DNA of 64,000 nt, taken from contig QPMI01000402.1 of NCBI GenBank assembly GCA_004431415.1, forward strand, positions 1 to 64,000, in the 5' to 3' direction. The DNA is from Cyanophora paradoxa CCMP329 (Eukaryota; Plantae; Glaucophyta). A model generated the notes under the pieces. That model was not told the origin of the DNA, made no database searches, and saw only the letters and a program-made list of their open reading frames with translations. Below are positions 32,280 through 59,300 of the stretch, piece after piece; positions within the stretch are counted from its first letter, which is position 1, and each line of letters begins with the position of its first letter. The position numbers were made by a program, and so were the translations under genes.

Positions 32280-32935
32280 AGCGCCGCTGCCGCCGCGGAT
32301 ACGGGGCGGGCAGGACCCCTCGGGGTGGCTGGTGAGAGCGGCCCGCCGGCGCCGCCGCGGATACGGGGCGGGCGGGACCCCTCGGGGTGGCTGGTGAGAG
32401 CGGCCCGCCGGCGCCGCCGCGGATACGGGGCGGGCGGGACCCCTCGGGGTGGCTGGTGAGAGCGGCCCGCCGGCGCCGCCGCGGATACGGGGCGGGCGGG
32501 ACCCCTCGGGGTGGCTGGTGAGAGCGGCCCGCCGGCGCCGCCGCGGATACGGGGCGGGCGGGACCCCTCGGGGTGGCTGGTGAGAGCGGCCCGCCGGCGC
32601 CGCCGCGGATACGGGGCGGGCGGGACCCCTCGGGGTGGCTGGTGAGAGCGGCCCGCCGGCGCCGCCGCGGATACGGGGCGGGCGGACCCTCGGGGTGGCT
32701 GGTGAGAGCGGCCCGCCGGCGCCGCCGCGGATACGGGGCGGGCGGGACCCCTCGGGTGGCTGGTGAGAGCGGCCCGCCGGCGCCGCCGCGGATACGGGGC
32801 GGGCGGGACCCCTCGGGGTGGCTGGTGAGAGCGGCCCGCCGGCGCCGCCGCGGATACGGGGCGGGCGGGACCCCTCGGGGTGGCTGGTGAGAGCGGCCCG
32901 CCGGCGCCGCCGCGGATACGGGGCGGGCGGGACCT
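32280..32935. repeat. Tandem array of ~10.5 x 62-bp GC-rich units
   Basis: GGTGAGAGCG recurs at 32331, 32393, 32455, 32517, 32579, 32641, 32701, 32762, 32824 and 32886. Confidence 0.97.
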
Positions 32936-33304
32936 CATAGGGTTCTGGGCTTTGTTCGGTGCCACTAGAAGATGGCGAACTGATACTAGCTATCCTAGAT
33001 GGTGAACTGATACTAGCTATCCTAGATGGCGAACTAGAAGAAGATGGCGAAGATCCTAGTTCTTCGTGTACATGCCCGACTACAGGTAATCTGATATGTT
33101 CCTTGTTCTCCTAAGTGTATCATGGTATCCTAGAGATGTAAATATATACAATTCTAAAGATCTTATCAGTAACGCGAGTCGCCGACATGAAGACGTACGA
33201 AACTTTGAATACTTAGAATTTTATCATACCAACTGGAAATAGTACACGTTTCTCCAATCAGATAGAAATTACATAGATCGGAGCCAGACAACCAACCGCG
33301 CACA

Positions 33305-34135
33305 TCGCTCTCATCAACTTCCCGAGGGGTCCCCCGGGCCTCTACTGCGCGGCGCCGACGACACGACCTCGCTCCCGTCAGCAACGAAGCGCCCCCTGCC
33401 GCCGCCCCGCCCACGCGTTGCCGCGGGGCGGCCCGGCTCTCATCAACTTCCCGAGGGGTCCCCCGGGCCTCTACTGCGCGGCGCCGACGACACGACCTCG
33501 CTCCCGTCAGCAACGAAGCGCACCCTGCCGCCGCCCCGCCCGCGCGTCGCCGCGGGGCGGCCCGGCTCTCATCAACTTCCCGAGGGGTCCCCCGGGCCTC
33601 TACTGCGCGGCGCCGACGACACGACCTCGCTCCCGTCAGCAACGAAGCGCCCCCTGCCGCCGCCCCGCCCGCGCGTCGCCGCGGGGCGGCCCGGCTCTCA
33701 TCAACTTCCCGAGGGGTCCCCCGGGCCTCTACTGCGCGGCGCCGACGACACGACCTCGCTCCCGTCAGCAACGAAGCGCCCCCTGCCGCCGCCCCGCCCG
33801 CGCGTCGCCGCGGGGCGGCCCGGCTCTCATCAACTTCCCGAGGGGTCCCCCGGGCCTCTACTGCGCGGCGCCGACGACACGACCTCGCTCCCGTCAGCAA
33901 CGAAGCGCCCCCTGCCGCCGCCCCGCCCGCGCGTCGCCGCGGGGCGGCCCGGCTCTCATCAACTTCCCGAGGGGTCCCCCGGGCCTCCTATTGCGCGCCG
34001 GCGGCACGGGCTAGCTCCCTTCAGCGACGACGCGGCCTCTGCCGCCGCCCCGTCCACGCGCCGCGGCGGGGCGGCCCGGCTCTCATCAACTTCCCGAGGG
34101 GTCCCCCGGGCCTCTACTGCGCGGCGCCGACGGCG
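33305..34135. repeat. Tandem array of ~6.5 x 129-bp units
   Basis: TCATCAACTTCCCGAGGGGTCCCCCGGG recurs at ~33311, 33440, 33569, 33698, 33827, 33956 and 34083. The last unit is diverged. Confidence 0.97.
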
Positions 34136-34258
34136 CGGGCTCTCTCTAATAAACAACACCGACGCTCAAGTGGTTACACAGGTTTAATTTAATTTACTAC
34201 AACCGCTAGGCCGCATTTACAAAATGAGAAACAAACGATTCCACGCACATTGCCCCAT

Positions 34259-37200
34259 TTACGGGTCGCTCAAAATGCCCATCCGAACCAGTTCCGCCCC
34301 ACCGTCCCACTCCGTTTCGCGGGGAAGCGTCGTGCGGAGCGGCACGCCGTCGAGCAGGTGCCGCAGTATCCCCTGGTACGCCGGACGGTGCAAAAAGTTC
34401 CGGTTCTCGCCGCCCGAGTGGAGCTCGAACAGAATGCGCCGCCGCTGTTCCTCGTCAAGCGGAATCGGGCCGCACCGCGGGACCGTTGCGCCGATGGCCA
34501 TCGCGTCCGCAGCCCACGCTGCGCGCAGCGTCTCGCGGGCCTCCATTTCGAGCCGACTGCGAAAGCGCTCAAAGAGGGCGGGGCGGGCGGCCGCCGAGAG
34601 CCCGACCACTTCCTCGCCCCCGTCACGATCGTACGTCTCGTCTATAACGTCCTCGCTCTCCATCCGCATCCAGCTACCCCTCCCGCCGTTGCTGCGAATC
34701 CGCACGCGTAGATCGCGAGGCGCGGCGGCCTGAACATACTCCAGAATCCCTCCGGCGAGCCGATTCGTCTTGCGCTTCCGCTCCGACGCGATCCGGCTCT
34801 CGGTGATGGTCGACGCGGACGCCGGTGCGGACCGACACCCGTTGTAGTCGGGTCCGTCGTCGCCGTCGACGTCGATCGCTTCGCTTCCCGACCCGGCGCC
34901 GCCGCGGGCGGGTCCGCACGCGCGCTTCGCGGGGCGCTCGTGCGCCCACTCGCCCCCGCACGCCGTCGCCGCGGCAACGCTCTCCGCCACGTCCAGCCTA
35001 TCGTGGTACGGATCGCCGAGGTCCAGCAGGACGCAGCGCAGCACCGCGCACGCATCCGTCGCCAGGCGCGTCGCGTACTCCTGGCGGTCGAGCGCGGGCT
35101 CGCCTGCGCCGCGCACGAGATGGAGCGGCTCCTCGCCGCGCTTGCCGACCTTTTCCCCGTTTACCGCGTCCAGCGTGACCGAGTACGCGTAGCCGCCCGG
35201 CCCGGGCGCGGACCCGTTGACGCGCGCGTCCATCCTCTCCATGAGGTGGAAGATGGGCAGCGCCTCGGACGAGTACCTCTCCAGCACCCGCCCGCCCGTC
35301 GCCGCGTCGATCGAAAACGCGGCTCCGTTGTTTTTTACCGGGACCTGGAGGTCGGCCAGCGAGTAGTAGCCGCCGAGGGCGCGCCACACGCGGTACGCGG
35401 TCTCCTCCAGCGCCTCCCGCAACGCATGAACCGCGTCCCCCGCGCCGAGCAGGGCGCCGATGACGCCGCGCTGGAGCAAGGCCGAGGCGTGGGACGCGCT
35501 CCGCTTGACGGCGTCGAAACCCGTGATCGCCACGCCGCGCTCCTCGACCGCGCCGCCGCCGGGGCCGCAGACGTACTTGACGCCCGCGTAGCCCTTTTTA
35601 CGAGCAATCAGAAACGGCCGAAACGCCTTTTCGACCTCGATGTAAAGGCGAGGGCACCCCGCGCCGCGGTGCGTCTCGTTGACCAGCCGCTGGATCGTCG
35701 CCGCCCGCCGCAACGCCTCCTCCACGGCGATCGCCTCGGCAAAGTGCACAAAGATCGAGTCCGTATCCCCGTAAAGCACCTCCGCGTCCGGGTACGCCCG
35801 CTGAACGCACGACATCGCCGTGCGGAGCGCCTCGCGTCCGCACGCCGTCGTCGATTCGGCGACGGGGCGCGAGGCCAGGGGCCCGCCGCGGCACCCGAAG
35901 ATCCCGTAAATCGAGTTTGCCACGACCTTGATCGCGAGCTGGAGCGCCCCCAGCACCCGCGCCTGGGGGGACGACGGGTCGAGCTCGGCGGCGCGCGCGC
36001 GCACCGCGGCCCGGGACGCCACGAGCGTGGAGACGAGGGCCGGCACGACGCCGCGGGTCTCGTCGGGGTCCCGCCGAAAGACGTGGATCCTCTCGCCCGC
36101 GGCGCAAAAGACGTGCTGGTCTTCCGAGCACAGCACCTCGCGCCCCGCGCGCGCCGCCCGGACGCAGCGCCGGCCGGCGGCGTCGGCCTCGAACACCGCG
36201 CCGGCGCCGACGTAGAGCGAGGGACACAGGCCGTAGGACCGCATGCAGCTCGGGTACAGGCTGCTGTAATCCAGCGTGACGACGGGCGAGGTGTACCTGC
36301 CGATCATCGGCGGGATCACGTGGGCGCCGTCGTACGACCCGTCGCCCCCGTTTACGTCGCCCTTTTCGTCGCCGCCCTCGTCCCCGCGGCCGCCCCCGGC
36401 GAGGGACGCGAGGCTCCGCTCGACGAGGACGGGTGGCCGCCCCTCGGACCTCGCCCTCCCGTAGCGACCGAGGAGCGCCTCGCCGCGCACCGTCGAGCCG
36501 CCGTACTGGATGAGGGAGAGCGGGACGCCCGTCTCCCGGCAGAGGGCAAGCGCGTTGAGGAGCGCCCCGCGCCGGTGCGCGATCCGGAGTACGAGCGACG
36601 CGTTCCGGACGCAGTGCGCGGCGAGCCGGGCGCGGCCCGCCGCGCCGCCCGCGCGAACGAGGGCGGCAATCGTCGAGGGCTCGAGATCCTCGCAGGGCTC
36701 GCCCAGCACGTGCGCCGCGGCGACGCCGAGCCTAGAGTCCACAAAGCCGGCGGCCGCGTCGCCCCGGAGCTCCTCCAGCGCGTCAAAGTGGACGAGGCCG
36801 CCCGCGAGGCGCCGCCCGCATTCGTCGCTGGGGCGGTACCGCCCGGGGCGTTTACCGCGCCACTCGCGCTCGGGAAGCGGCGAGGGGCACGCGTCCTTGC
36901 CGAGGTGGCGGAACCAGTCCCGCGCCGCCGCGCCGCGCCCAAAGAGGTGCTCGGAGCGCCGCGCGAGGAACGGGAGGTCGCGCCCGCTGCTGTTGAAACC
37001 GACCAGCACGTCGGCCTCGGACGCCGCGTTTACGAACCACTCGAGGAGCGCCGCCTCGGCGACGTCGGCGTCGGACTGCGTAAATGCAACGACCTCGCAG
37101 TCTGGGATCGGCGGCGCGCACGCCCCGGCGACGCCCACCTGCCGACGGCGGGGCGACCCATCCCCGCCGAGCTCCGCCAGGACGATGGAGATGAGGACGA

Positions 37201-37873
37201 CGCGGTCCTCGGGCCGCGCGGGATCGGGGACGCGCGCGGCGCCCTCGGCGGCGACGGTCTCGATGGCCAAGTAGGCGACCGTCACGCGCGGCGGCGCGCT
37301 CTCGTACTCGCCGCCCGCCGGCCCCACGCCCGCCGTCGGCGCGCACCACTCGGCCACGCCGGGGCGCGCGCGGCCCTCGCGGCAGGGCGCCGCGCCGCGG
37401 ACGCGGATCCAGGTGCCGGGAGAGGTGCCCGTCGACTCGTGAAACGCGACGTGCTGGCGGGGCTGGTGTCCCATCACGAGCGGGTCGTAGTTGGGGCCGC
37501 GCGCCGCCCTCCAGCGTTGCTGGAGCCCGTCGAAAAGGAAACGGAGCGCCGGCCAGGGCGCGCGCACGTCCCACGCGCTCAGGGGCTCCTCCACGTAGCC
37601 GTGCAGGGGAAAGACGGGCCGGGGCTGCGCGTCCACCCGCGCCCCGCAGCACCGCGCGGCGTCGTCGAGGACGGCGTAGAGGCGTGCGGGGTCCGGGTCC
37701 GCCGGCGCCGGCGCGATGCTGAAGCGAGCGTAAAAGTCGTCCACGTACACGACGACGGCGGCGCCGTCGGGCGTGCGGCCCCAGAGGCGCACCCGGCCGC
37801 GCGCATCGCCTCGGACGTTGGGCGCGCGGATGGTGCAGTAGTCGGTGCTGTAGCAGAAGAGGAGGAGGTCCAT
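34259..37873 (-). CDS. polB: Family B DNA polymerase (delta/viral-like, RNA-primed type)
   Basis: LWGRTPDG N-terminus; YDGAHVIPP; LDYSSLYPSCM; QLAIKVVANSIYGIFG; VLYGDTDSIFV; EVEK..KKGYAG. Likely start MDLLLF at 37873, downstream of TATAAAAG. Intronless. Confidence 0.97.
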   Translation of the reverse strand: MDLLLFCYSTDYCTIRAPNVRGDARGRVRLWGRTPDGAAVVVYVDDFYARFSIAPAPADPDPARLYAVLDDAARCCGARVDAQPRPVFPLHGYVEEPLSAWDVRAPWPALRFLFDGLQQRWRAARGPNYDPLVMGHQPRQHVAFHESTGTSPGTWIRVRGAAPCREGRARPGVAEWCAPTAGVGPAGGEYESAPPRVTVAYLAIETVAAEGAARVPDPARPEDRVVLISIVLAELGGDGSPRRRQVGVAGACAPPIPDCEVVAFTQSDADVAEAALLEWFVNAASEADVLVGFNSSGRDLPFLARRSEHLFGRGAAARDWFRHLGKDACPSPLPEREWRGKRPGRYRPSDECGRRLAGGLVHFDALEELRGDAAAGFVDSRLGVAAAHVLGEPCEDLEPSTIAALVRAGGAAGRARLAAHCVRNASLVLRIAHRRGALLNALALCRETGVPLSLIQYGGSTVRGEALLGRYGRARSEGRPPVLVERSLASLAGGGRGDEGGDEKGDVNGGDGSYDGAHVIPPMIGRYTSPVVTLDYSSLYPSCMRSYGLCPSLYVGAGAVFEADAAGRRCVRAARAGREVLCSEDQHVFCAAGERIHVFRRDPDETRGVVPALVSTLVASRAAVRARAAELDPSSPQARVLGALQLAIKVVANSIYGIFGCRGGPLASRPVAESTTACGREALRTAMSCVQRAYPDAEVLYGDTDSIFVHFAEAIAVEEALRRAATIQRLVNETHRGAGCPRLYIEVEKAFRPFLIARKKGYAGVKYVCGPGGGAVEERGVAITGFDAVKRSASHASALLQRGVIGALLGAGDAVHALREALEETAYRVWRALGGYYSLADLQVPVKNNGAAFSIDAATGGRVLERYSSEALPIFHLMERMDARVNGSAPGPGGYAYSVTLDAVNGEKVGKRGEEPLHLVRGAGEPALDRQEYATRLATDACAVLRCVLLDLGDPYHDRLDVAESVAAATACGGEWAHERPAKRACGPARGGAGSGSEAIDVDGDDGPDYNGCRSAPASASTITESRIASERKRKTNRLAGGILEYVQAAAPRDLRVRIRSNGGRGSWMRMESEDVIDETYDRDGGEEVVGLSAAARPALFERFRSRLEMEARETLRAAWAADAMAIGATVPRCGPIPLDEEQRRRILFELHSGGENRNFLHRPAYQGILRHLLDGVPLRTTLPRETEWDGGAELVRMGILSDP

Positions 37874-37937
37874 GTCGGGGCGGGCGGGGGTCCGCGGGGG
37901 CTGCACGAGCGCAGTAGAGGGGACCGAGGGTGGGGTC

Positions 37938-37945
37938 CTTTTATA
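37938..37945 (-). promoter_or_regulatory. TATA box of polB
   Basis: TATAAAAG on the minus strand ~65 bp upstream of the ATG, in otherwise GC-rich DNA. Confidence 0.65.
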
Positions 37946-38221
37946 GGTGCGGCCGCTCGGGGGCGCGGATTCGAGCGAAATAGAAGGAGGGGAGGGGTAC
38001 GGCGGTCCGGGGGGCAAGACGGGTGCCACCCGCATCTCGGCGGGCTGCGATGAACCCTCGGCGTACGAGTACGAACGAGGCGCGGTCGTCTCCTACAATT
38101 TGGATCACAAGACGCGATACAGAGACGACCCTAGCGCAACGCGCGGCGTCCCCTCGATTCTGGGGCCCGCCGCGACAAAGAACACTAACCTACATCGGCT
38201 GTGGACCGCACCATCCCCCGT

Positions 38222-38485
38222 CTACGACGTCGCGCAGCAGACGCAGCCGGTCCTGCGCCGGGGCGCGATGCGGAGGGGGGGCAGCGGGCTCGTAAAACCC
38301 GCCAGCTTGCACTCCAGCTCGTAGTCGAACGAGTTGAGCGCGTCGCAGATGAGCGCGTCGAGCTCCGGATCCGGCGTAAGGTGGCGCGCGATGTCCGCGG
38401 GGGTCCAGACGTGGCGCGACGGGATGGGCGGGCGCGACGCCTCGTCCGTCGCGACCTTTGCGTCCGGCTGTTCCAGAGTGCTCAT
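38222..38485 (-). CDS. Small hypothetical protein
   Basis: MSTLEQPDAK..LICDALNSFDYELECKL has protein-like composition. The 3' end is uncertain. Confidence 0.35.
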   Translation of the reverse strand: MSTLEQPDAKVATDEASRPPIPSRHVWTPADIARHLTPDPELDALICDALNSFDYELECKLAGFTSPLPPLRIAPRRRTGCVCCATS

Positions 38486-38639
38486 GACTGAATAAAGTGG
38501 CAAAGGCGATGCGATTGCGGCGGTGCGATTGCGAGGTCGAAGACGTGCACGGGTGGCAGGATTCAAGCGAAATCCCCCGGAACAAAATGAAACGACCCGC
38601 GCAATCCGCGTACCCACTCTCACGCGACGCTTTCAGCAA

Positions 38640-39179
38640 TTACAAACCCAATTTGCAGCGCGCCTCGGCGGGGCAAGCGTAGGCGACAATGGGAGGCGCG
38701 GGAGCGTGGTCCGGATGCAGCACGACGGCAAGAGCGACGGTAAATCGGTGCTTCCCCGCGGTCACGACGAGACAGAGGTCCCCGTCGGCGGGCGCGGATA
38801 CGTAGAAGACGCCCCCGCGCGTGGGCAGGTCCACGTAGCAGGCCACGCCGCCCGTCGCCGCAAACGAGGTCGCAATCGCTCGGTTCAGGGCGCCCGCAAA
38901 GCTCTCCGGGCGCGCGCCGTGCACGTCGGGCGCCGGCACGGGCACGTAGAGCCCGGGCGGGTAGGGCTCCCCGCGTAGTCCCGGCCCGTAGCGCGCTCGG
39001 AGGTTGATGGTGCACGCGCGCCCCGCGGCGGACGCGACCCGCACAAAGATGTCGACGGCGGCCCACGTGGGGGCCGACGCGGGGATGTAGATGCCGCGCG
39101 GCACGGCGGCAGCGCGATCGGCGATCCAGTACCCCACCGAGACCGCCGACGGCGTCGCGTTGCGATCGGCGGGCTGCAT
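38640..39179 (-). CDS. Hypothetical protein
   Basis: 179-aa ORF with balanced composition, divergent from the MORC-like gene. Confidence 0.55.
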   Translation of the reverse strand: MQPADRNATPSAVSVGYWIADRAAAVPRGIYIPASAPTWAAVDIFVRVASAAGRACTINLRARYGPGLRGEPYPPGLYVPVPAPDVHGARPESFAGALNRAIATSFAATGGVACYVDLPTRGGVFYVSAPADGDLCLVVTAGKHRFTVALAVVLHPDHAPAPPIVAYACPAEARCKLGL

Positions 39180-39471: not shown

Positions 39472-41397
39472 ATGTCGTCCTCGTCGTTCGGCTCCGTCAT
39501 CAAGGCGCACTCCGAGCTCCTCAACTCCGTCGTCAAGTGCGCGACCAAGTTCGGTCCGTTTGTGGAGGTCATCGACAACGCGATCGTCGTCTCGGACGAC
39601 GTCAAGGTCGACATCTCCGTGGTTGCGATCACGTCGACCACCAAACCCGGGGGAGACGAGAAGACCTCCCTCGTCGTTCGCGACAAGTCCGGTGGCATTC
39701 CGCGAAAGGCGCTCAAGGAGCTCACGAGCGTCGGCGCGCCTCCCGACGGCACGCGCAGGGCGACCACCCTCTCGCGGTTCGGGGTGGGGCTCAAGTGCGC
39801 GGCGAACATGGACAAGGTCAACGGCGCCACCGTCGTCCTCACGACAAACGAGGACGAGTACCACGCCGTCGTTTACCAGCGCCGCGTGCCCGATGGCTCC
39901 ACGGGGAGCGAGAAGCAACTCCACGCGGAAGTCTTCACCAACCTCGAGTACGACGTCAAGGGTCGCGCGCTGAAGAAAACGGATCCGCTCGCGGTGGCCC
40001 TTCGGACCTTTGCGGACGACGGGTTGATGGGCGTCGTGAGCAACGAGCTCGCGTCGCTCACCCAGAGCGACGAGTGCGGCACGACCGTCATCTTTCTGGA
40101 CTTTAACAACGGCGGAAACTTTATCTGGGACAACGAACGCAAGGACCTCGCGTACGTTGTTAAAAAGGGGAACCGGGAGCTCGCGGCCGACACGCTCGCC
40201 GGATTTCTCGCTCTCCTCTACCCCGGCATTCGTAACCGCATCCCCGAATGCTCCATCTGCGTCGGAGGCGACCAACCCGTCAACTTTCACTCCATCGAGG
40301 ACGCGTTCGATCGCAAGGGCGGTAAAATATCCAACTTCTCCGTGGATAATGGCCCATTTGCGGGCACCGTGTTCGTAGGCGCGCCCTCCGAGGACGGTCC
40401 GTACTCGCGCAGCCCGTTCGGGTTCGGCCCGGGGCGCGTGCTCCTCGTCTCCTTTGTGCGCGTGATCGGCTCGTTTCCCATCCCGACCGGTCGCCTCGGC
40501 ATCCCGCCCGGCCACGGAATCGTCCTGCACACGAAGAACTCTGTGGAGACAAACCCCACCAAGGACGATGTACCCGCCGCAACGGGCGAGAAGATCATCA
40601 CCGAGCTCGCCAAAAAACTTCCGTACCAGGCCGTCGCAGCGCCTACCGCGGCCCCCGTCCGGGTGGCGGAGCGCTCGAACAAGTTTACTCAACTCTTCGA
40701 TGAGCACGACGCGCTCCAATCCCCCTACGTGTGCGAGAAGAACAAGTTTGGCCTCGCTCCCTCCGAGGACCTCAGCGAGCCCGCGCGTCTCTTCGATGAG
40801 AACAAACAGGTCGGATCCGACATCACCGACTGTAAACGGTTCAAAGAGGTCATCAAGAACCGCTGCCTGCTCGCCGTCGAGCTGATCTACCACGTTGCCG
40901 ACCCGGCGGTGCGCGAGCGCATGGACGCCGAGAACCTCGCGAAACGCTGCACCAAGATGGTAATCGGCGGCAAGATATGCACCATGGGGAAACTCGGCGA
41001 GGCGATCCGCGCCATCGTCTGCGCCCCGTACGGCACGTTGGAGGCGTTGCGCGCAAAGTATGTCGAGCTCGCCAAGGATACCCGCGTTCAGGAGCTCCTT
41101 GTCGAGTACTCGACGTACGACTACAAAAAGCCCAAGGACGACGACGCGCCCAAGAAGCGCAAGTTGGAGCGCGACGATCGCAACGCGGATGGGAAGAAAC
41201 CGTCAAAGCGCGCAAAAAAGAGCGTCAAGACCAACTCAAAGGGCGACGACGCCGGGGACGACGACGCTCCCAAGAAACGCAAGGCACCCCGCAACGATCG
41301 CGACAAGGGCAAGAAGAAACCGGCAAAGCGCCTTCAGAAAAACGCAGAGTCCGAGCCGGAGAGCGACGATGCCACCGAGTCGGAGACGGAGGATTGA
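39472..41397 (+). CDS. MORC-like GHKL ATPase with basic/acidic tail
   Basis: HSELLNS..FVEVIDNA (N box), VRDKSGGI (G1), SRFGVGLK (G2), GTTVIF (G3), and TNPTKDD resembling the MORC S5 motif. Duplicated DDDAPKKRK NLS-like repeats. Confidence 0.8.
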   Translation: MSSSSFGSVIKAHSELLNSVVKCATKFGPFVEVIDNAIVVSDDVKVDISVVAITSTTKPGGDEKTSLVVRDKSGGIPRKALKELTSVGAPPDGTRRATTLSRFGVGLKCAANMDKVNGATVVLTTNEDEYHAVVYQRRVPDGSTGSEKQLHAEVFTNLEYDVKGRALKKTDPLAVALRTFADDGLMGVVSNELASLTQSDECGTTVIFLDFNNGGNFIWDNERKDLAYVVKKGNRELAADTLAGFLALLYPGIRNRIPECSICVGGDQPVNFHSIEDAFDRKGGKISNFSVDNGPFAGTVFVGAPSEDGPYSRSPFGFGPGRVLLVSFVRVIGSFPIPTGRLGIPPGHGIVLHTKNSVETNPTKDDVPAATGEKIITELAKKLPYQAVAAPTAAPVRVAERSNKFTQLFDEHDALQSPYVCEKNKFGLAPSEDLSEPARLFDENKQVGSDITDCKRFKEVIKNRCLLAVELIYHVADPAVRERMDAENLAKRCTKMVIGGKICTMGKLGEAIRAIVCAPYGTLEALRAKYVELAKDTRVQELLVEYSTYDYKKPKDDDAPKKRKLERDDRNADGKKPSKRAKKSVKTNSKGDDAGDDDAPKKRKAPRNDRDKGKKKPAKRLQKNAESEPESDDATESETED

Positions 41398-44129: not shown

Positions 44130-47100
44130 AGCCGCACGGAACGAGTCGGACGGGGCGCGCGGCGGCGGCGTTTACGCGGGTCGCGGCGGTCCCCGCCCCG
44201 CACCCACACCGCCCCGCACCCCCGCCCCGCCCACCCCATCGCCCCTGCCCCTCGCACCGCGTCGTCTCCGCGGCCGGTGTTGCCGCCAGGGGCGACGGCG
44301 CGCGCGCGGGGACGGGGTGAGGGGTACGGCTCGTGCGCGTCTGTCTGTTCGGTCCAAAAGAAGTCCACCCCGCCGGCGGCGTCCTTCCCGGATTTTCATG
44401 ACGTCCGAGTGGGAACGCGCCCTCCCGTCTTTTTCCGTTCTAGTATCTTTACTCTCTTTCTTCCCACTTTGACCTTTAGAAGTAGAGAAAATGTAGGTAA
44501 ACCAAGGTAGGGAAGAGGTTTAAGGAAAAATGGGAGGCCGCGTTCCCACTCGGACGTCCGAAAAATCCGGGAAGGACACCGCCGGCGGGGTCGACTTCTT
44601 TTGGACCGACCAGACAGACGCGCACACTCCATCCCCCCCCCGTTCTGTCCCGCCGCGCGCCGCCGCACCCGCCGCGCAGAAAGAGTCGGACGGGGCGCAC
44701 GGCGGCGGCGTTTACGCGCGTCCCAAAGGCCCCCGCCCCGCACTGGCCTCGCCCCGTACGGCGCCCACCCACCCGACCGCCTCTGCCCTCGCACCGCGCC
44801 GTCGCCGCGGCCTGCGGCGCCGCCAGGGGCGACGGCACGTGCGCGGGGACGGGGTGAGGGGTACGGCTCGTGCGCGTCTGTCTGGTCGGTCCAAAAGAAG
44901 TCCACCCCGCCGGCGGCGTCCTTCCCGGATTTTTCGGACGTCCGAGTGGGAACGCGCCCTCCCGTCGTTTTCCGTTCTAGTATCTTTACTCTCTTTCTTC
45001 CCACTTTGACCTTTGGATGTAGAGAAAATGTAGGTAAACCAAGGTAGGGAAGAGGTTTAAGGAAAAATGGGAGGCCGCGTTCCCACTCGGACGTCCGAAA
45101 AATCCGGGAAGGACACCGCCGGCGGGGTCGACTTCTTTTGGACCGACCAGACAGACGCGCACACTCCATCCCCCCCCCGTTCTTTCCTGCCGCGCGCCGC
45201 CGCACCCGCCGCGCAGAAAGAGTCGGACGGGGCGCACGGCGGCGGCGTTTACGCGCGTCCCAAAGGTCCCCGCCCCGCACTGGCCTCGCCCCGTACGGCG
45301 CCCACCCACCCGACCGCCTCTGCCCTCGCACCGCGCCGTCGCCGCGGCCTGCGGCGCCGCCAGGGGCGACGGCACGCGCGCGGGACGGGGTGAGGGGTAC
45401 GGCTCGTGCGCGTCTGTCTGGTCGGTCCAAAAGAAGTCCACCCCGCCGGCGGCGTCCTTCCCGGATTTTTCGGACGTCCGAGTGGGAACGCGCCCTCCCG
45501 TCTTTTTTCGTTCTAGTATCTTTACTCTCTTTCTTCCCACTTTGACCTTTAGAAGTAGAGAAAATGTAGGTAAACCAAGGTAGGGAAGAGGTTTAAGGAA
45601 AAATGGGAGGCCGCGTTCCCACTCGGACGTCCGAAAAATCCGGGAAGGACACCGCCGGCGGGGTCGACTTCTTTTGGACCGACCAGACAGACGCGCACAC
45701 TCCATCCCCCCCCCGTTCTTTCCTGCCGCACGCCGCCGCACCCGCCGCGCAGAAAGAGTCGGACGGGGCGCGCGGCGGCGGCGTTTACGCGCGTCCCAAA
45801 GGTCCCCGCCCCGCACTGGCCTCGCCCCGTACGGCGCCCACCCACCCGACCGCCTCTGCCCTCGCACCGCGCCGTCGCCGCGGCCTGCGGCGCCGCCAGG
45901 GGCGACGGCACGCGCGCGGGGACGGGGTGAGGGGTACGGCTCATGCGCGTCTGTCTGGTCGGTCCAAAAGAAGTCCACCCCGCCGGCGGTGTCCTTCCCG
46001 GATTTTCATGACGTCCGAGTGGGAACGCGCCCTCCCGTCTTTTTCCGTTCTAGTATCTTTACTCTCTTTCTTCCCACTTTGACCTTTGGATGTAGAGAAA
46101 ATGTAGGTAAACCAAGGTAGGGAAGAGGTTTAAGGAAAAATGGGAGGCCGCGTTCCCACTCGGACGTCCGAAAAATCCGGGAAGGACACCGCCGGCGGGG
46201 TCGACTTCTTTTGGACCGACCAGACAGACGCGCACACTCCATCCCCCCCCCGTTCTTTCCTGCCGCGCGCCGCCGCACCCGCCGCGCAGAAAGAGTCGGA
46301 CGGGGCGCACGGCGGCGGCGTTTACGCGCGTCCCAAAGGTCCCCGCCCCGCACTGGCCTCGCCCCGTACGGCGCCCACCCACCCGACCGCCTCTGCCCTC
46401 GCACCGCGCCGTCGCCGCGGCCTGCGGCGCCGCCAGGGGCGACGGCACGCGCGCGGGGACGGGGTGAGGGGTACGGCTCGTGCGCGTCTGTCTGGTCGGT
46501 CCAAAAGAAGTCCACCCCGCCGGCGGTGTCCTTCCCGGATTTTTCGGACGTCCGAGTGGGAACGCGCCCTCCCGTCTTTTTTCGTTCTAGTATCTTTACT
46601 CTCTTTCTTCCCACTTTGACCTTTAGAAGTAGAGAAAATGTAGGTAAACCAAGGTAGGGAAGAGGTTTAAGGAAAAATGGGAGGCCGCGTTCCCACTCGG
46701 ACGTCCGAAAAATCCGGGAAGGACACCGCCGGCGGGGTCGACTTCTTTTGGACCGACCAGACAGACGCGCACACTCCATCCCCCCCCCGTTCTTTCCTGC
46801 CGCACGCCGCCGCACCCGCCGCGCAGAAAGAGTCGGACGGGGCGCGCGGCGGCGGCGTTTACGCGCGTCCCAAAGGTCCCCGCCCCGCACTGGCCTCGCC
46901 CCGTACGGCGCCCACCCACCCGACCGCCTCTGCCCTCGCACCGCGCCGTCGCCGCGGCCTGCGGCGCCGCCAGGGGCGACGGCACGCGCGCGGGACGGGG
47001 TGAGGGGTACGGCTCATGCGCGTCTGTCTGGTCGGTCCAAAAGAAGTCCACCCGCCGGCGGTGTCCTTCCCGGATTTTCATGACGTCCGAGTGGGAACGC

Positions 47101-49475
47101 GCCCTCCCGTCTTTTTCCGTTCTAGTATCTTTACTCTCTTTCTTCCCACTTTGACCTTTAGAAGTAGAGAAAATGTAGGTAAACCAAGGTAGGGAAGAGG
47201 TTTAAGGAAAAATGGGAGGCCGCGTTCCCACTCGGACGTCCGAAAAATCCGGGAAGGACACCGCCGGCGGGGTCGACTTCTTTTGGACCGACCAGACAGA
47301 CGCGCACACTCCATCCCCCCCCCGTTCTGTCCCGCCGCGCGCCGCCGCACCCGCCGCGCAGAAAGAGTCGGACGGGGCGCACGGCGGCGGCGTTTACGCG
47401 CGTCCCAAAGGTCCCCGCCCCGCACTGGCCTCGCCCCGTACGGCGCCCACCCACCCGACCGCCTCTGCCCTCGCACCGCGCCGTCGCCGCGGCCTGCGGC
47501 GCCGCCAGGGGCGACGGCACGCGCGCGGGGACGGGGTGAGGGGTACGGCTCGTGCGCGTCTGTCTGGTCGGTCCAAAAGAAGTCCACCCCGCCGGCGGTG
47601 TCCTTCCCGGATTTTCATGACGTCCGAGTGGGAACGCGCCCTCCCGTCTTTTTTCGTTCTAGTATCTTTACTCTCTTTCTTCCCACTTTGACCTTTAGAA
47701 GTAGAGAAAATGTAGGTAAACCAAGGTAGGGAAGAGGTTTAAGGAAAAATGGGAGGCCGCGTTCCCACTCGGACGTCCGAAAAATCCGGGAAGGACACCG
47801 CCGGCGGGGTCGACTTCTTTTGGACCGACCAGACAGACGCGCACACTCCATCCCCCCCCCGTTCTGTCCCGCCGCGCGCCGCCGCACCCGCCGCGCAGAA
47901 AGAGTCGGACGGGGCGCACGGCGGCGGCGTTTACGCGCGTCCCAAAGGTCCCCGCCCCGCACTGGCCTCGCCCCGTACGGCGCCCACCCACCCGACCGCC
48001 TCTGCCCTCGCACCGCGCCGTCGCCGCGGCCTGCGGCGCCGCCAGGGGCGACGGCACGCGCGCGGGACGGGGTGAGGGGTACGGCTCGTGCGCGTCTGTC
48101 TGGTCGGTCCAAAAGAAGTCCACCCCGCCGGCGGTGTCCTTCCCGGATTTTTCGGACGTCCGAGTGGGAACGCGCCCTCCCGTCTTTTTTCGTTCTAGTA
48201 TCTTTACTCTCTTTCTTCCCACTTTGACCTTTAGAAGTAGAGAAAATGTAGGTAAACCAAGGTAGGGAAGAGGTTTAAGGAAAAATGGGAGGCCGCGTTC
48301 CCACTCGGACGTCCGAAAAATCCGGGAAGGACACCGCCGGCGGGGTCGACTTCTTTTGGACCGACCAGACAGACGCGCACACTCCATCCCCCCCCCGTTC
48401 TTTCCTGCCGCACGCCGCCGCACCCGCCGCGCAGAAAGAGTCGGACGGGGCGCGCGGCGGCGGCGTTTACGCGCGTCCCAAAGGCCCCCGCCCCGCACTG
48501 GCCTCGCCCCGTACGGCGCCCACCCACCCGACCGCCTCTGCCCTCGCACCGCGCCGTCGCCGCGGCCTGCGGCGCCGCCAGGGGCGACGGCACGCGCGCG
48601 GGGACGGGGTGAGGGGTACGGCTCATGCGCGTCTGTCTGGTCGGTCCAAAAGAAGTCCACCCCGCCGGCGGTGTCCTTCCCGGATTTTCATGACGTCCGA
48701 GTGGGAACGCGCCCTCCCGTCTTTTTCCGTTCTAGTATCTTTACTCTCTTTCTTCCCACTTTGACCTTTAGAAGTAGAGAAAATGTAGGTAAACCAAGGT
48801 AGGGAAGAGGTTTAAGGAAAAATGGGAGGCCGCGTTCCCACTCGGACGTCCGAAAAATCCGGGAAGGACACCGCCGGCGGGGTCGACTTCTTTTGGACCG
48901 ACCAGACAGACGCGCACACTCCATCCCCCCCCCGTTCTTTCCTGCCGCACGCCGCCGCACCCGCCGCGCAGAAAGAGTCGGACGGGGCGCGCGGTGGCGG
49001 CGTTTACGCGCGTCCCAAAGGCCCCCGCCCCGCACTGGCCTCGCCCCGTACGGAGCCCACCCACCCGACCGCCTCTGCCCTCGCACCGCGCCGTCGCCGC
49101 GGCCTGCGGCGCCGCCAGGGGCGACGGCACGCGCGCGGGGACGGGGTGAGGGGTACGGCTCATGCGCGTCTGTCTGGTCGGTCCAAAAGAAGTCCACCCC
49201 GCCGGCGGTGTCCTTCCCGGATTTTCATGACGTCCGAGTGGGAACGCGCCCTCCCGTCTTTTTCCGTTCTAGTATCTTTACTCTCTTTCTTCCCACTTTG
49301 ACCTTTAGAAGTAGAGAAAATGTAGGTAAACCAAGGTAGAGAAGAGGTTTAAGGAAAATGGGAGGCCGCGTTCCCACTCGGACGTCCGAAAAATCCGGGA
49401 AGGACACCGCCGGCGGGGTCGACTTCTTTTGGACCGACCAGACAGACGTGCACAAACTGTACCCCTCACCCCATC
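44130..49475. repeat. Tandem array of ten ~537-bp units, each with 94-bp inverted arms around a 105-bp AT-rich core
   Basis: Unit marker ATGGGAGGCCGCGTTCCC at 44530, 45067, 45603, 46140, 46677, 47212, 47749, 48285, 48822 and 49358. First palindrome: arms 44333-44426 and 44532-44625. A partial copy lies at ~43021-43260. Confidence 0.98.
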
Positions 49476-49525
49476 TTCGCGCGGCAAGGCGATACGTTGT
49501 CGTGTGTGGCGAGGGCTTTACTGGT

Positions 49526-52683: not shown

Positions 52684-52770
52684 TGATCCGGCGACGGCTC
52701 GAATGTTCAAGGGGGCCCCGAGCCCGTATTTACGCGTGGGCGCGCGCCGAGGGAGGGCCCCCCCCCCCCC

Positions 52771-52864: not shown

Positions 52865-55156
52865 ATGGCGCCGTCGACAGAGTGGAAGGTGGAGTACCGC
52901 CCGCAAAACGGCTCCGCGTACGATGTCGTCAACGACAAGAAGTGGTACTCGGGGTCCAACAAAGTCGCATCCGTTGGCGTCGAGCCCATCAACACCCTCC
53001 TTCGCAAGAGCTCCCTGTTTTTACCCGAGTTTTGGCGCGAGGCGGACCCCTCCGTTCGCTACCACCACATGGGGATCATCGACATCGACGGGATCAGGTC
53101 GGATCCAAAAGGCGCAAAGCCGATGTGGACTCCGGATCGCGAGGAGCTCGATCGTCGCATCGCCGGCGGAGGCCTCGACGGCGCGGACCTCGGCGCGCTC
53201 TGCGAGGAGAATTCGTCGCTCTGGGCGGCTCGCAAGGCGGCGGACCTGATCTCCGCGCGGCTCACGGAGCGCGGCAAGCAGGCCCTTCTCCCCTACTACA
53301 CCGGTAAAAAGGGATTCCGCGTGCTGTTCCGCGACGTCGACCCGGCGACGGGCGTGGACCGCGCGTACGTGCGCGTCCGTAAGAACGAAAAGTGGGGGAC
53401 GCACGAAAACGTAAAAACGTACTTTGAAGATCTTCTCGGGAGCGACCTGCTTTCGATGGAGCTGGAGCGTGGTGGCATCAAGACGACCGTCGGTTTTCTC
53501 ATCGATTACGGCGTTCACGCGACAGGCAAGGGTTGCAAGCCGGACGTGCAGCACCACGCCGTCACAAAGGTGTGGCCGACGCGCGGGCCCACGCTTTCGA
53601 CGAACAGGACCCGCGATCCCGATCCGGCGCTGCGCCGCGAAATATTCCGTCACTTTGATGCCATCTGCACGACGAAGAACCTTTCCGCAGCATCGACGGC
53701 GCGTCTTTACGAGCTGCGGGGCGAGACGACCGAGCCGACCGATTCCGATCGCAATCCAAAGGAGACGTGCGGCGAAGGACCCGACATCGATGTCGAAACG
53801 AAAAGGCAACTCGGGGGAAAGCACATCGTTCATGCGTGGCGTTGCATCCTGCTGGACTCGAAGTATCCACCGGCCGGGTTTCGCGTGGGCACGACCGCAA
53901 GCGACGCGATCAGGGCGACGCACAGGGAATGGTTCTTTAAGTATACGCAAAACTTTGCCCTGCACAACAACCCATTTGGATGGATGCCGGGATCAAAGCT
54001 CAACTCCGAAGAGAAGCGACAACTGAACGAATGGATTCTCAAGAGACAGCTCGAGGCGCTCCGGTTGGGGCTCGAGTTCTGTACCCACGAGTTTACGGAT
54101 CCCGAAGACTGCAACCGATTAAAACTGGATTTTGACAAGCTCCTGATCGACGACCACGCGACGCTACGCTCTCTGCAATCCATTCTCGTGGAGGAGCTCG
54201 GGATTCCCCGTGAACATTGCCGCGTGATCTCCCTCGGAAACCCAAAACGCAGGTCGACGCACGTCGCGTTTCCGGATATAAAGCTGCCCGTGGAGATGTT
54301 CCCGTCAATTGTGCAGCGGATAGCGAGCGCCAAGGGAATGCCCTGGAGCGGATCCCTTGCCGGCAAGCTCGACACGCAACCCCTGTCGTCGCCCTCCATT
54401 CCGCTTCGCATGCTGGGGTCGGTGAAGCGCATCGCTATCGTGTACGAAGACAGCAACGGTACCTCCGCCAACTGGTTAAGGATCGTCGAAGACAGTCGCA
54501 TGCGGTTGCTCGCGGCCGTCGACGCGTTCGGTCAGCCCGACGAGAAACGGTACGCTACAAGCGATGGCACGTTTGAGGCCCTCACGCAACGCCTCCTGTA
54601 CGACGCGTGCGTGCGGGCCCTCCCGGGCTGGACGGCCACACCGCTTTCCGAGGAGACGCGCGAGCTAATTCGCTGCTGCAAACAAAGGGCACGCGGTAAA
54701 TCCAACAAGGTACCGGCGAGCGACGCGGAGTGCGTGGTACTCAAGGAGCTCTTTGAAAAGTACCTCCTCCTCGACGAGGTCGCGGACGCCGTGTTTGAGC
54801 AGTGCGGCGAGACCGACCCGGTCGAAGTTTTCAAGTCCCCCGTGTTTAAATCATCTGGTGACGGATGGTACACTGCCTCCAACGACAAACTCTGGGCGGT
54901 GTGCATTCCCACGGCCGGAAGGATGGTGAAAGGCAAGCCCGCCCACCCCGCCGACAAGGCTCACATCGGAACGGTTTACTTTACCCTCTGCCCCGAGCAG
55001 CGATGCGTCATCGCCGGGTGCCTCCGCGAGACGTGTTGCGCGTTTTACATGCGTGTAGGCGACACGGATTCCAAGTTCCCTCGCACCCGAGTCGGGACCT
55101 TTGGTACCCAAACGGCCCCCGACGCCCCCCCCGCAAAGCGCGCAAAGACCAGGTAG
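52865..55156 (+). CDS. Archaeo-eukaryotic primase with two AEP-like domains and C-terminal UL52/PrimPol-like zinc finger
   Basis: Domain 1: IIDID, YYTGKKGFRV, IDYGV. Domain 2: LKLDFD, RRSTHVAFP, LDTQP..LRMLGSVK. C-terminal C..H..C....C (AVCIP, AHIG, GCLRETC). Confidence 0.8.
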   Translation: MAPSTEWKVEYRPQNGSAYDVVNDKKWYSGSNKVASVGVEPINTLLRKSSLFLPEFWREADPSVRYHHMGIIDIDGIRSDPKGAKPMWTPDREELDRRIAGGGLDGADLGALCEENSSLWAARKAADLISARLTERGKQALLPYYTGKKGFRVLFRDVDPATGVDRAYVRVRKNEKWGTHENVKTYFEDLLGSDLLSMELERGGIKTTVGFLIDYGVHATGKGCKPDVQHHAVTKVWPTRGPTLSTNRTRDPDPALRREIFRHFDAICTTKNLSAASTARLYELRGETTEPTDSDRNPKETCGEGPDIDVETKRQLGGKHIVHAWRCILLDSKYPPAGFRVGTTASDAIRATHREWFFKYTQNFALHNNPFGWMPGSKLNSEEKRQLNEWILKRQLEALRLGLEFCTHEFTDPEDCNRLKLDFDKLLIDDHATLRSLQSILVEELGIPREHCRVISLGNPKRRSTHVAFPDIKLPVEMFPSIVQRIASAKGMPWSGSLAGKLDTQPLSSPSIPLRMLGSVKRIAIVYEDSNGTSANWLRIVEDSRMRLLAAVDAFGQPDEKRYATSDGTFEALTQRLLYDACVRALPGWTATPLSEETRELIRCCKQRARGKSNKVPASDAECVVLKELFEKYLLLDEVADAVFEQCGETDPVEVFKSPVFKSSGDGWYTASNDKLWAVCIPTAGRMVKGKPAHPADKAHIGTVYFTLCPEQRCVIAGCLRETCCAFYMRVGDTDSKFPRTRVGTFGTQTAPDAPPAKRAKTR

Positions 55157-55208: not shown

Positions 55209-55964
55209 TCAGCGTTGCGGGCCCCCAATCGTGGCGGAAACGAATCGCAAGGCCGCGCGCCCCAGCATCCACCGCGGATCGGCGTAGAGGTCCGTAAACG
55301 GGGCGGGGAGGCACTTTGGGAGCCACGCGGATGCCTCGGCGAGGCGCGCGGCGTACTCTCCCGGCTCCTCGGCGAGCCGCGCGAGGTGCTCGTCCTCGAG
55401 GAGTCGCACCGTGGTGGGCGGGACGCGGCACGAGGGACACGCGAGGGCCCTCGGCTGGGCGACGAGCTGGAGGGCGCACGCGAGGCAGAGGACGTGCTTG
55501 CACGGGGTAAACTCGACGGGGCGCGCGGGTCGCTCGAGGCACACGGCGCACAGCCGGTCCGGCTCCGGCCTGGACGTTGATGCCAGGTTCCACGTGCACG
55601 TCGAGAGGAGCGCGAGCGCGCGGCCGAGGCTGAAAAATTTCGCAAGGGCGGCGCGGTCGCGCGCGGGGTCGGCCTCCATGGGCAGCTCGGCGACGGCCAT
55701 GTCGCGCCGGCAGTCAAAAGGTTGGTGGCAGAGGGGCACGCGCACGACGGCGGCGCGGCGATCGGCGTCGTAGTAGAGCGTGCGATCGCCGCGGGCGGAT
55801 TCCAGGGCCGCCGCGCCCGGCGGCGGTTCGGCGCTAGAGGCCGAGCGCCACGCGGGAAGGGTGAAGAGGCCGCCGTCCCTGACGGCGGGCGCGAGCCCGG
55901 GGAGGTCCTGCAGGACGCACGTCCGCTTGGTGCACGGCTCGACGGCGCTTGGCTCGGCCTGCAT
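55209..55964 (-). CDS. C3HC4 RING-finger protein (putative E3 ligase)
   Basis: CAVC..PCKHVLCLAC..CPSCR. TATAAAAGG lies ~55 bp upstream. Confidence 0.9.
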   Translation of the reverse strand: MQAEPSAVEPCTKRTCVLQDLPGLAPAVRDGGLFTLPAWRSASSAEPPPGAAALESARGDRTLYYDADRRAAVVRVPLCHQPFDCRRDMAVAELPMEADPARDRAALAKFFSLGRALALLSTCTWNLASTSRPEPDRLCAVCLERPARPVEFTPCKHVLCLACALQLVAQPRALACPSCRVPPTTVRLLEDEHLARLAEEPGEYAARLAEASAWLPKCLPAPFTDLYADPRWMLGRAALRFVSATIGGPQR

Positions 55965-56329: not shown

Positions 56330-56396
56330 CAACCGGCCCCTGGGGCCCATGGTCGAGTGCGAGCCTCCCCCGGACCACCCCCGTCGCGCCGGCACC

Positions 56397-59300
56397 ATGA
56401 CGGGCAAGCGGTCCTCTCCGCCCATCCCCTCGCCCTCGGACGACGAGGGAGACGACGCTGCAAAGCGCGGGAGGATCGTAAACGACGAAAGCGGTGGCAA
56501 GATCGAGGACGCAATCGACTCTATGGACGTCGACCCCATCCCGCCGCCGCCCCGCCCCGAAGACGCCGTCGAGGTCATCTTCGACGGCGCGTGGCACCCC
56601 TGGACGGCGCTCGAATCGTCGTCCGAGTTTGAGCGGCGCGGCATGGCGTCCACCTTTGCGGTTCGCTCCAACGGCCGCCTCCGCCTCGTGCGCTACGGAG
56701 GCGTGGAGACCTTTGTCGCCGAGGGCGTGCGCCACGCGCGCCGCCGCGAGCTCGTCGTCCGGCTGCGCTCCGAGCGGTACCGCCGCTGCTCGCTCGCGGC
56801 GCTGCTGCGCGCGTTCCCGGACCTCCGTCGGGCCGCGCGCGCCGCGTTTCGCCGCTGCCAGAAGCTGGAGCGCTGGGGGGTCCCGTTTACGCTCGAGTAC
56901 GACGGCGCGCTCGGGTTCCGCATCTTTTACAAGTCCATCACGCGCTTTCGCGAGCCGCCCCTCGGGCGGCGCTTTGCCTCTTTGGAGGGGCAGACCACGG
57001 CGACGCTCCCCTCGTACCTTCGGGTCCTCCCGAGCAGCGTCCCCGCCCCCGCGTCCGTCGAGACGTACCTCGGCGCCGCCGCCGCCTCGGTCCAGCTCCC
57101 CGCCACGCGCATCGACGACTACCGCGCGCTGGGCTCGGACGAGCGCGCGGAGCGCGTGCTCGTCCGCACGGGCGAGCCGGACGACGGCTCGTGCGAGGCG
57201 CGCGCCGACCTCGCCGAGTGGCTCCTCCCAGAGGTCGTTCGGTACGCGGGCGGCCTCGGGGTGCCGCCCGCCGCGCCGGCCGGGAGGACGATCGAGCTCG
57301 ACGACGCGGAGCGCGCGCGCTTTGCCGTGGCTCTCGGCCTCGTCGCCGGCCCCGCCTGCGCCGAGCTGGCGGCGGCGCCGGGGCGCGTTTACGTGGACCC
57401 CGCGAGCGTGCGGGTGGAGGCCTGGGTCAACTCGATCGAGTACCGGGCGCGTTTACCGTGCCCCGCGTGCGGGCGGGGGGACCGCTGGGCCGAGCTGACG
57501 GCCGACTCGGTGCGGGAGCGCGTCGGCGTGCGCTGCTGCGGCGAGTGCGAGCCCGCCATCGCGCGCAAGCGGCGGCGAGCCAACCGCAGCCGCTACCCGA
57601 AGCGGCCGCTCCACTCGGCGCTCAAGGCGCTCCGGCAGTGCGAGGTCGCCGCCGACGAGGCGCGCTTCGGAAACCTCGGTCGGGACGCCGTCGAGCGGCG
57701 GGAGCACTACATGGACGCCGCGCGGTTCGGTGCGACGGCGAATCGCGCGTTCGAGGGGTGCGGCACGGCCTCTGCCGAGCACGTCGCGGAGATCGAGCGG
57801 GTGGCCGAGGCGACGGCGAGGCTTTTCGGCGGCGAGGGTACCTTTTGGACGCTCGAGGGCATCGCCGAAAAGTGGGCCACGCTGAATGAAGAGGAGCGCC
57901 GCAAGGAGCGGGGCGCGCTGCGGACGGGCTTTCAGCTCCCGGAGCCCGGCAAGATGGACGATTGGATGAGGGTCTGTTGTCCCAGAGGGGGAGATCGACG
58001 ACGCGATGGACGAGATCATCGTGGATCCCGACGTGACAAACGTTTACGTCGACGACAGGCTCATCCACGACGCCATTGCGCGCGCCTTTGCGGAAGGATA
58101 CGAGCGCGTTTACGTCGTGCTGGAGGAGGGCATGGGCGCCGGAAAGTCGACGGCCATCCTCAGGTCGGCCGCAGAGGTGGTCCGGGACCCAACGATCGCG
58201 AACCTCGCCGAGGACACGACCGTTTCGATCGCCTGGTTCGTCAACTCCCGCTCCCATCCCGACCAGCTCAAGGAGAGGAACGACTTTCGGGCGGTGTTTC
58301 GCGGACTCGTGGACAAAGAGGGGAGGGAGGTGCAGCGGTGCTGGATCGGGTACAGGGAGGAGCGAAAGGCGGGCTCCGATGCGCCGGACGCCCTGCTCGT
58401 GACGGCCGAGTCGTCCCATCGGTTCGTCCAGGGCGCCTCGCCGTACCACATCCTCGTCATCGACGAGGTCGGCAAGATCGCCGCCATCATCAGCTCGTCG
58501 GGCACCCTCGCCAAGGATTTACGCCAGGCGGCCGCGGCAAAGGCTCTCGCGCGGATGCTGGCCGCGGCGCGCGTCGTTTATCTCGCAGACGCCGACCTGG
58601 ACCGCGAGACGCTCCGATTTGTCCTCGACATGGGCAATTCGGAGCCACGACCCGACGTAAACGCCTCCGAGGGGGAGACGGCGGCGGGGACTCGGACGAC
58701 GAGGGGGTGGCGCTCGCGGGGAGGACCGGCGCGGCGCGGACAAAGCGCATCCTGTATCGTAAATCCCACGGGGCGGGGGCGACATGCGCCACGCGTGGGC
58801 CGCGCTCCCGCTCTCTGAAGCCGGGCTGCGCGTCGCCGCGCTGCTCCTCCTCGGCTACAAGGTGATCGTCTCCTCGACCACCAAAGACGAGTTCAACGCG
58901 ATCTGCGCCGTTGTCGACAGCCACCCGGACCTCGCGCACGTCCGCAGGGCCCTCGTCTGCGGCAACTCGGACGATCGCGATCGCAGGCTCTTTTCCGACC
59001 CGAACCGGTTCGCCGAGCTGGACTTAATATGTTACAACACCGCGGTCGCTCAAGGGAGCTCCATGGACGAACCCCACGTGCTCTTTGACGTCTGCTGCGT
59101 GGTGCACGGAGGCGTCCTCGGGGACGTCAACATCCAGTACCAGCTCACGCCTCGCTGCCGGGCCTTTTCCGAGACCCTCGCGCTCATCTTCTGCCCCCTC
59201 GGGACACAGCCCAAAGAGAACGCCAAGGGCGCGCTCGAGCTCCTCGAAACGCGGCGGGCCGAGGTCCGGAGTCACCGGCGACGCGAGCGGCGCGACAGGG

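Follow-up and report, generated by a model that had tools for sequence, protein, structure and literature searches.

The genomes of large DNA viruses are regarded as dependent on proofreading. The closest described systems are the delta-like viral family B DNA polymerases (PolBs), including EukVir2/3 (Kazlauskas et al. 2020, PMC7544198) and the nucleocytovirus, mirusvirus and herpesvirus replicases, which share an N-terminal, exonuclease and polymerase domain architecture (NTD-Exo-Pol) and the polymerase motifs and have no C-terminal zinc module. PolBs with a naturally dead exonuclease are already known, namely Pol alpha, Pol zeta and the B2/G2 enzymes (PMC7544198). Giant-virus insertions have been reported in Cyanophora paradoxa (PMC12344493), and four of five mirusvirus markers have been reported for the genus (PMC10827195). 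Here we describe a delta-like PolB gene on a 64,000-nucleotide stretch of C. paradoxa CCMP329 DNA (contig QPMI01000402.1, positions 1 to 64,000; the window), whose polymerase site is intact and, as the sequence supports, still under selection, and whose 3′–5′ exonuclease is very likely dead.

The window PolB shows the NTD-Exo-Pol architecture and carries all three motifs, A, B and C, placing it in family B as a delta-like enzyme, and its gene is without introns. Pfam recognises DNA_pol_B (E=1e-50) and DNA_pol_B_exo1 (PF03104, E=2e-9), and the best sequence matches in the PDB are human and yeast Pol delta (E=1.8e-42). An AlphaFold2 model of residues 55–1010 from a 32-row alignment (predicted local distance difference test, pLDDT, 83; predicted template modelling score, pTM, 0.85) has Pol delta as its closest PDB fold (TM 0.77) and retains the ExoI strand and the ExoIII helix, together with the thumb and full replicase architecture. 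Residues are numbered from the first ATG, that of the longer form P0001; the uninterrupted frame of about 1200 aa named in the original prediction is found both there and in the database product P0002 (Table 1).

Six residues are catalytic in family B exonucleases: four carboxylates, the ExoIII tyrosine and the lysine of the Kx2h motif (PMC4974454). Four of the six are changed in the window PolB (D257A, K448C, Y474H and D478N), leaving E259 and D353, and beyond the six F352R is also changed. Mapped by hand on alignments to the human and yeast Pol delta chains, A257 corresponds to yeast D321 and human D316, R352 to F406, C448 to yeast K491, H474 to Y516, and N478 to yeast D520 and human D515. 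The strings YLAIET, GFNSSGRD, HCVRNA, DYSSLYPS, KVVANSIYG and YGDTDS are all present as first read. Of the three Exo motifs first read as altered, ExoI and ExoIII have lost their aspartates; in ExoII Asp D353 is kept and only the aromatic residue is gone. The damage is wider than claimed, as K448C had been missed; its column is Lys in 30/30 references and in P0003, the exo-intact sister described below. The five changed codons need at least eight nucleotide changes, three of them for K to C, and a single base is enough for three of the changes. By established two-metal chemistry, a site stripped of both the ExoI and the ExoIII aspartate, of the Tyr and of the Lys should be unable to cut DNA, and the exonuclease is predicted to be very likely dead, as had been proposed.

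We find it hard to credit that exonuclease activity persists by means of E259 and D353 plus some ligand not yet recognised. The fold is kept along with E259, N348, D353 and D418, but four of the six catalytic residues are lost, and an alignment check for other acidic residues at the metal-binding positions, suggested in the original prediction, revealed none near the motifs that is new relative to P0003. Error in sequencing or assembly was likewise ruled out for the Exo codons, as contigs of runs X1, X3 and X7 (3/3 examined, of 20 DNA runs with the gene) show 0 differences over about 34119-39325; each of these runs is marked as a potential source of the window DNA, so that assembly error is excluded, yet they are not independent populations. 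No RNA run was listed with the gene, and one presumed-RNA run gave only short stray matches to it, which is evidence neither way on expression.

The contrast between the two domains was examined in alignment A3, composed of the window PolB, P0003 and 30 references chosen from 72 other matches; alpha-like, zeta-like and most Pol II-like rows were omitted, and the invariance of its Exo columns partly reflects which rows were left out. In the 43-row alignment A4, the only exo-degenerate rows besides the window PolB are two alpha-like and three zeta-like ones, and one row is without the domain. Among columns invariant in all 30 references, the window PolB breaks 4/11 in the exonuclease and 0/21 in the polymerase (Fisher p=0.009), the latter in agreement with the intact polymerase site first reported; three of the four broken columns had prompted the finding, leaving only K448C (and V439A) independent of that choice. 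P0003 breaks 0/32 of the same columns. The contrast has p=0.001 at an 80% threshold and 0.003 at 90%. Identity between the window PolB and P0003 is 50% in the exonuclease domain and 45% in the polymerase domain and is thus not reduced in the former, and by alignment and model the exonuclease fold is conserved with only its chemistry gone.

These counts bear directly on whether the changes are simply decay of a silenced integrated copy, with no functional meaning. In C. paradoxa viral genes are reported to be enriched among methylated genes, which are mostly silent (PMC12344493), and the three single-base changes would suit a relic. However, uniform neutral decay calibrated on 4/32 invariant columns predicts 5.9 stops in the frame against 0 observed (P=0.003, as a rough estimate with indels not counted), no invariant polymerase column is changed, and K to C takes three base changes. 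The GC content at third codon positions is 0.91-0.94 across the domains of the gene, and CpG is not depleted, with an observed/expected ratio of 1.27-1.44 at 34-64 kb outside the 537-bp array (0.56 and 0.23 in positions 1-4000). With the Exo columns broken, the polymerase columns whole and the frame without a stop, general decay is unlikely, and a functionless relic seems to us quite improbable. We infer that loss of the exonuclease came while selection still acted on the polymerase, well before any recent integration; judged from these alignments, the loss is real and specific, in one case.

Searched with unindexed phmmer, a set of 1.84 billion representatives gave one close relative, P0003 (610 bits), with the next match at 207 bits. 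This protein (EukProt EP00741, tig00020553_g10525.t1, labelled Cyanophora paradoxa) is 42% identical to the window PolB over the full length and has the same unique C-terminal region, but differs in keeping YWDIET, TWNGACYD, the Lys and YCLRDA, and with them all six catalytic residues. The original prediction had pointed to homologues as a place to look for the same substitutions. Of 147 further homologues, 134 keep all six residues, six are cut short or do not align at ExoI, another six deviate or do not align at the Lys column only, and P0199 may lack the ExoI Glu; both aspartates are missing in 0/147, and a carboxylate is lost in at most 1/147. A viral set was made of the best 80 of 504 IMG/VR PolBs, found through polymerase motifs and ranked by similarity, many of them closely related. 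Seventy-six of the 80 keep all six residues, three are without the ExoI region in the recovered frame and one differs or is misaligned at the Lys. None of the 80 has lost a carboxylate, which supports the earlier view of the state as unusual for a large DNA genome, here as rare among large-DNA-virus PolBs.

Searching with the exonuclease region found only the protein itself, with no relative among shorter proteins; scans of viral contigs with P0001, A2, P0006 and the primase gave no further relative, and a metagenome scan gave two weak, unrelated loci. A full-text literature search that missed most subscription papers and preprint supplements, and is weak evidence of absence, found no natural exo-dead PolB of a large eukaryotic DNA virus, and the literature search likewise found no published account of this element's polymerase. 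Separately, the P0003 model is about 37 residues short right after motif A (residues about 533-546), including the helix that follows SLYP, which could be either a gene-model error or a real deletion.

In every tree the window PolB and P0003 form a clade with 100% support, on a common stem of 0.83-0.93 changes per column. The trees are quick ones with no named mirusvirus sequences and no approximately unbiased (AU) test, and the pair has a long branch and biased composition. The phylogeny against delta, zeta and viral PolBs that had been suggested places the pair outside the clade into which all 13 zinc-motif rows fall (Pol delta; Shimodaira–Hasegawa-like approximate likelihood ratio test, SH-aLRT, 96, quick tree) and apart from the rows identified as alpha-like or zeta-like through Pfam domains or source names, which form separate clades. 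With exo-intact P0003 as its sister, the window PolB does not descend from Pol alpha or Pol zeta, and on these trees its loss is independent of theirs. There is no supported sister group for the pair; a sister relation to P0005/P0006, seen in two earlier trees and lost in two later ones, was dismissed as an artefact.

The original prediction also read the strong divergence of neighbouring proteins as the sign of a mutator. This link fails, since most of the divergence lies on the stem common to the exo-intact sister, which is about as diverged; the branch leading to the dead copy alone exceeds that of P0003 by a factor of only 1.2-1.5 (0.80/0.57, 0.67/0.44, 0.81/0.56, 0.62/0.51 and 0.60/0.50 in five trees). 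It is improbable, in our estimate, that the enzyme is a replicase whose errors go unbuffered, with a strongly raised mutation rate explaining the divergent proteins. The dead-copy branch is longer in all five trees, and in the 0.81/0.56 tree only 2/100 bootstraps of the difference fall at or below zero; that tree had a fixed topology not recovered later, and the excess shrinks to 0.60 vs 0.50 with better sampling. Five of seven outgroups lean towards a longer dead copy, but relative-rate tests are significant with none of the seven (p=0.09-0.93), and the long genes of the block are intact. A moderate mutator is compatible with the data, as selection limits protein divergence.

Compared with delta-like viral PolBs, the window PolB has similar primase and UL9-like helicase neighbours, and its best BFVD matches, 17-20% identical, are the polymerases of EhV86, medusavirus and pandoravirus; it differs in the lost Exo residues, and the pair stands on its own long branch. 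Eukaryotic Pol delta is the closest match in the PDB by sequence and fold, but the window PolB has no CysA/CysB (no CxxC in P0001 or P0003), is intronless, falls outside the zinc-bearing clade and is predicted to be exo-dead. Its C-terminal region of about 250 aa has neither a CxxC zinc motif nor a motif like the PCNA-interacting peptide (PIP), and could possibly serve as a partner-binding module. Like Pol alpha, Pol zeta and archaeal/bacterial PolB2, the window PolB would keep an Exo fold that is inactive next to a polymerase that looks active. The PolB2 mutasome, however, has a degenerate motif C (PMC7544198), a missing ExoIII and iRadA and PPB2 partners, whereas in the window PolB YGDTDS is intact and the ExoIII helix is present; no RecA-like neighbour was found in Pfam or NCBIfam scans.

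Damage tolerance is a known role of exo-dead PolBs, as in Pol zeta and the archaeal/bacterial B2/G2 enzymes with degenerate Exo motifs (PMC7544198), and the window gene was found in 20 DNA runs under a single organism label, which could fit a translesion or repair polymerase of viral origin domesticated by the host. The gene is nevertheless intronless, its surroundings are other virus-like genes in a block that is 83% coding, and there is no CysA/CysB motif for the B subunit. We judge such domestication very unlikely.

The explanation we favour, tentatively and with somewhat less than even confidence, is that this is a proofreading-less viral delta-like PolB, its polymerase residues kept, from an endogenous and probably nucleus-replicating large DNA virus whose errors are buffered by the host. 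One inactivating change would have come first, after which the remaining catalytic codons would have drifted. With polymerase function under selection throughout, the lineage would have replicated for long without intrinsic proofreading, and the PolB would have stayed the element's replicase alongside the element's own primase and origin helicase. The load may then be kept below the error threshold by mismatch repair or exonucleases of the host that act on the replicon in the nucleus. A long-lived exo-dead lineage would need such buffering, since the equivalent yeast alleles mutate strongly and exo-depleted viruses tend towards extinction: pol3-01, F406A and Y516F increase mutation 25-50-fold and are lethal unless MSH6 is present (PMC3188538), and exo-depleted mutants of the herpesvirus Marek's disease virus tend to die out in culture (PMC11226790). 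The yeast K491R change raises mutation 2-8-fold, second-site antimutators arise readily, and strand displacement is mentioned for proofreading-deficient Pol delta (PMC3188538).

Several points weigh against this explanation. The contrast between the domains is weaker when the threshold is relaxed (p=0.08 at 70%, 0.02 at 60%) and loses significance without the positions named in the original prediction (p=0.06-0.68). The family has two members, with a single loss event and no second exo-dead relative found, and no compensating antimutator change was found in the window PolB. Two candidate antimutators were considered and rejected. P575, C597 and Y601, at the yeast eex positions E594, I616 and H620, occur as the same residues in 8, 2 and 5 of the 30 exo-intact references. 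KKGY in place of KKRY is present in three of the best 80 of 504 viral PolBs (L039, L041 and L042), where the exonuclease is intact.

A more modest role for the enzyme, as an accessory short-tract polymerase, strikes us as unlikely but worth weighing. It would extend primase primers, convergent on Pol alpha, or fill repair and recombination gaps, leaving bulk synthesis to host Pol delta/epsilon, and proofreading would have become dispensable. Exo loss with little increase in rate would suit such a role, and so would the nearby primase and origin-type helicase, the missing PIP-like motif and the fact that no clamp was recognised in the window. Loss of replication genes whose work passes to host enzymes has been reported for certain mirusvirus lineages and for the proposed Ariadnavirales (PMC12768974; bioRxiv 2026.08.29.747986), some mirusvirus orders have no polymerase at all (PMC12768974), and Pol alpha and Pol zeta offer precedent (PMC7544198). 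Against it, exo-intact P0003 is equally without a PIP-like motif, and the modelled thumb and full replicase architecture are kept.

P0002 and P0003 form a natural orthologue pair, one with a predicted dead and one with an intact exonuclease site, offering a direct test of how a large viral genome can live without proofreading. Possible routes that the pair could tell apart are host mismatch repair, higher base selectivity and hand-off to host polymerases. The window PolB may also represent a stage on the way to those nuclear mirusviruses that have no polymerase. It is possible, though we hold it with some doubt, that a long-lived large-DNA-virus lineage with an exo-dead polymerase either outsourced fidelity to the host nucleus or adopted a Pol-alpha-like primer-extending role, as an intermediate towards total polymerase loss. 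Should the enzyme be inactive or purely accessory, it would be a curiosity of one endogenous element.

Table 1. Features of the window discussed in the text.
Feature	Position	Strand	Remarks
Delta-like family B DNA polymerase (P0002)	34259..37873	-	1204 aa; database product, start ATG 37873
Longer form P0001	34259..38035	-	In-frame upstream ATG 38035; 1258 aa, uninterrupted
3′–5′ exonuclease domain, residues 250-490	36566..37288	-	Fold kept, active site eroded (predicted); PF03104 E=2e-9
ExoI	37259..37267	-	D257A (codon GCC), E259 kept
ExoII	36977..36994	-	F352R (CGC), N348 and D353 kept
Auxiliary catalytic Lys of Kx2h motif, changed to Cys	36692..36694	-	K448C (TGC; at least 3 nucleotide changes)
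ExoIII	36602..36616	-	Y474H (CAC), D478N (AAC)
Pol motif A DYSSLYPS	36248..36271	-	Intact
Pol motif B KVVANSIYG	35903..35929	-	Intact
Pol motif C YGDTDS	35756..35773	-	Intact
PolB C-terminal region, function not assigned	34262..35005	-	46% identical to P0003; no family match
AEP primase, C962R/UL52 type	52865..55156	+	763 aa, intact; Atlas features 0.94, clusters 88-100% viral, recognition 2311
UL9-like SF2 helicase	56349..61768	+	About 1807 aa; weak labels: Herpes_ori_bp E=0.25, CyRepA1 E=3e-4, Atlas recognition 1603
GHKL ATPase	39472..41397	+	PF13589 E=6e-6; Lys/Asp-rich tail; transcribed away from PolB cluster
RING finger protein	55209..55964	-	PF13920 E=3e-8
Ten 537-bp tandem units	44249..49497		97-100% identity; each with inverted pair of about 149 nt (80-83%)
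Tandem arrays, 62-bp (x10.6) and 129-bp (x6.4)	32282..34132		Just downstream of PolB

From 34259 to the window end, 83% of the DNA outside the 537-bp array is covered by intronless frames. The intact C962R/UL52-like primase and the UL9-like helicase as neighbours point to an endogenous large DNA virus, which is our best reading of the block from its gene content, with the family not assigned. UL9-like primase-helicases have been reported in nucleocytoviruses and herpesviruses (bioRxiv 2026.08.29.747986). The giant endogenous viral elements described in C. paradoxa (PMC12344493) also have clustered virus-like genes in a GC-rich eukaryote genome, and P0003 carries the same species label; the window is a candidate member of this set, and the available text of PMC12344493 is silent on their polymerases. 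The window yielded no recognisable gene for a capsid, a clamp, MutL or a stand-alone exonuclease, nor for the double jelly-roll capsid, A32 ATPase or VLTF3 of Nucleocytoviricota, and the block runs off the right end; scans made without mirusvirus profiles recognised no HK97 capsid, portal, triplex or terminase of Mirusviricota. When 16 neighbouring frames were crudely screened for motifs, no proofreader that could act in trans emerged, and the one ExoI-like match stood alone without ExoII.

The primase has no Pfam match and no PDB sequence match. By eye it consists of two AEP-like halves followed by a C-terminal Cys/His cluster, and the first half reads GKKGFR at a position that we take to be normally occupied by His, so that this half may presumably be inactive. 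The helicase shows as three frames in the window, where contigs of 3/3 runs carry four extra single bases; these frame breaks are assembly errors. In the phase implied by the contigs the only stop is the terminal one, and the N-terminal region has Cys clusters. We take the GHKL ATPase to be MORC-like rather than MutL-like, as the MutL motif is absent; its single-sequence model is uninformative (pLDDT 35).

The block has a ubiquitin-ligase flavour of a kind common in giant viruses. Besides the RING finger protein, two F-box-like frames and one Skp1/BTB-like frame were recognised by eye, with no Pfam match, and there is one weak GIY-YIG match; the frames with F-box, Skp1/BTB, RING and GIY-YIG likeness lie at 41794-42948 (+), 62862-63998 (-), 49526-50020 (-), 55209-55964 (-) and 52423-52989 (-).

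The 537-bp array, of which partial copies of the unit are found at 43020-43262 and 44128-44254, is a candidate replication-origin array for the UL9-like helicase. The 62-bp and 129-bp arrays are a candidate left edge of the intronless block; with respect to an integration junction, no single listed contig spans the repeat arrays. The run contigs also hold a second copy of the flank, about 87% identical (33053-33249 and 33799-33887) and skipping 549 bases of the 129-bp array, which is a paralogous locus elsewhere in the genome.

Towards the left end, the region 374-2917 (+) is AT-rich (GC 0.39) and CpG-depleted and carries split D5-like primase-helicase frames (PriCT_2, DUF5906), and is probably an older, decayed, different mobile element. 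The region 8174-12866 (+) has fragmented frames with no Pfam match; by eye and from motifs, we take it to include a Ulp1-like protease and a tyrosine-recombinase-like segment, possibly of a spliced transposon gene.

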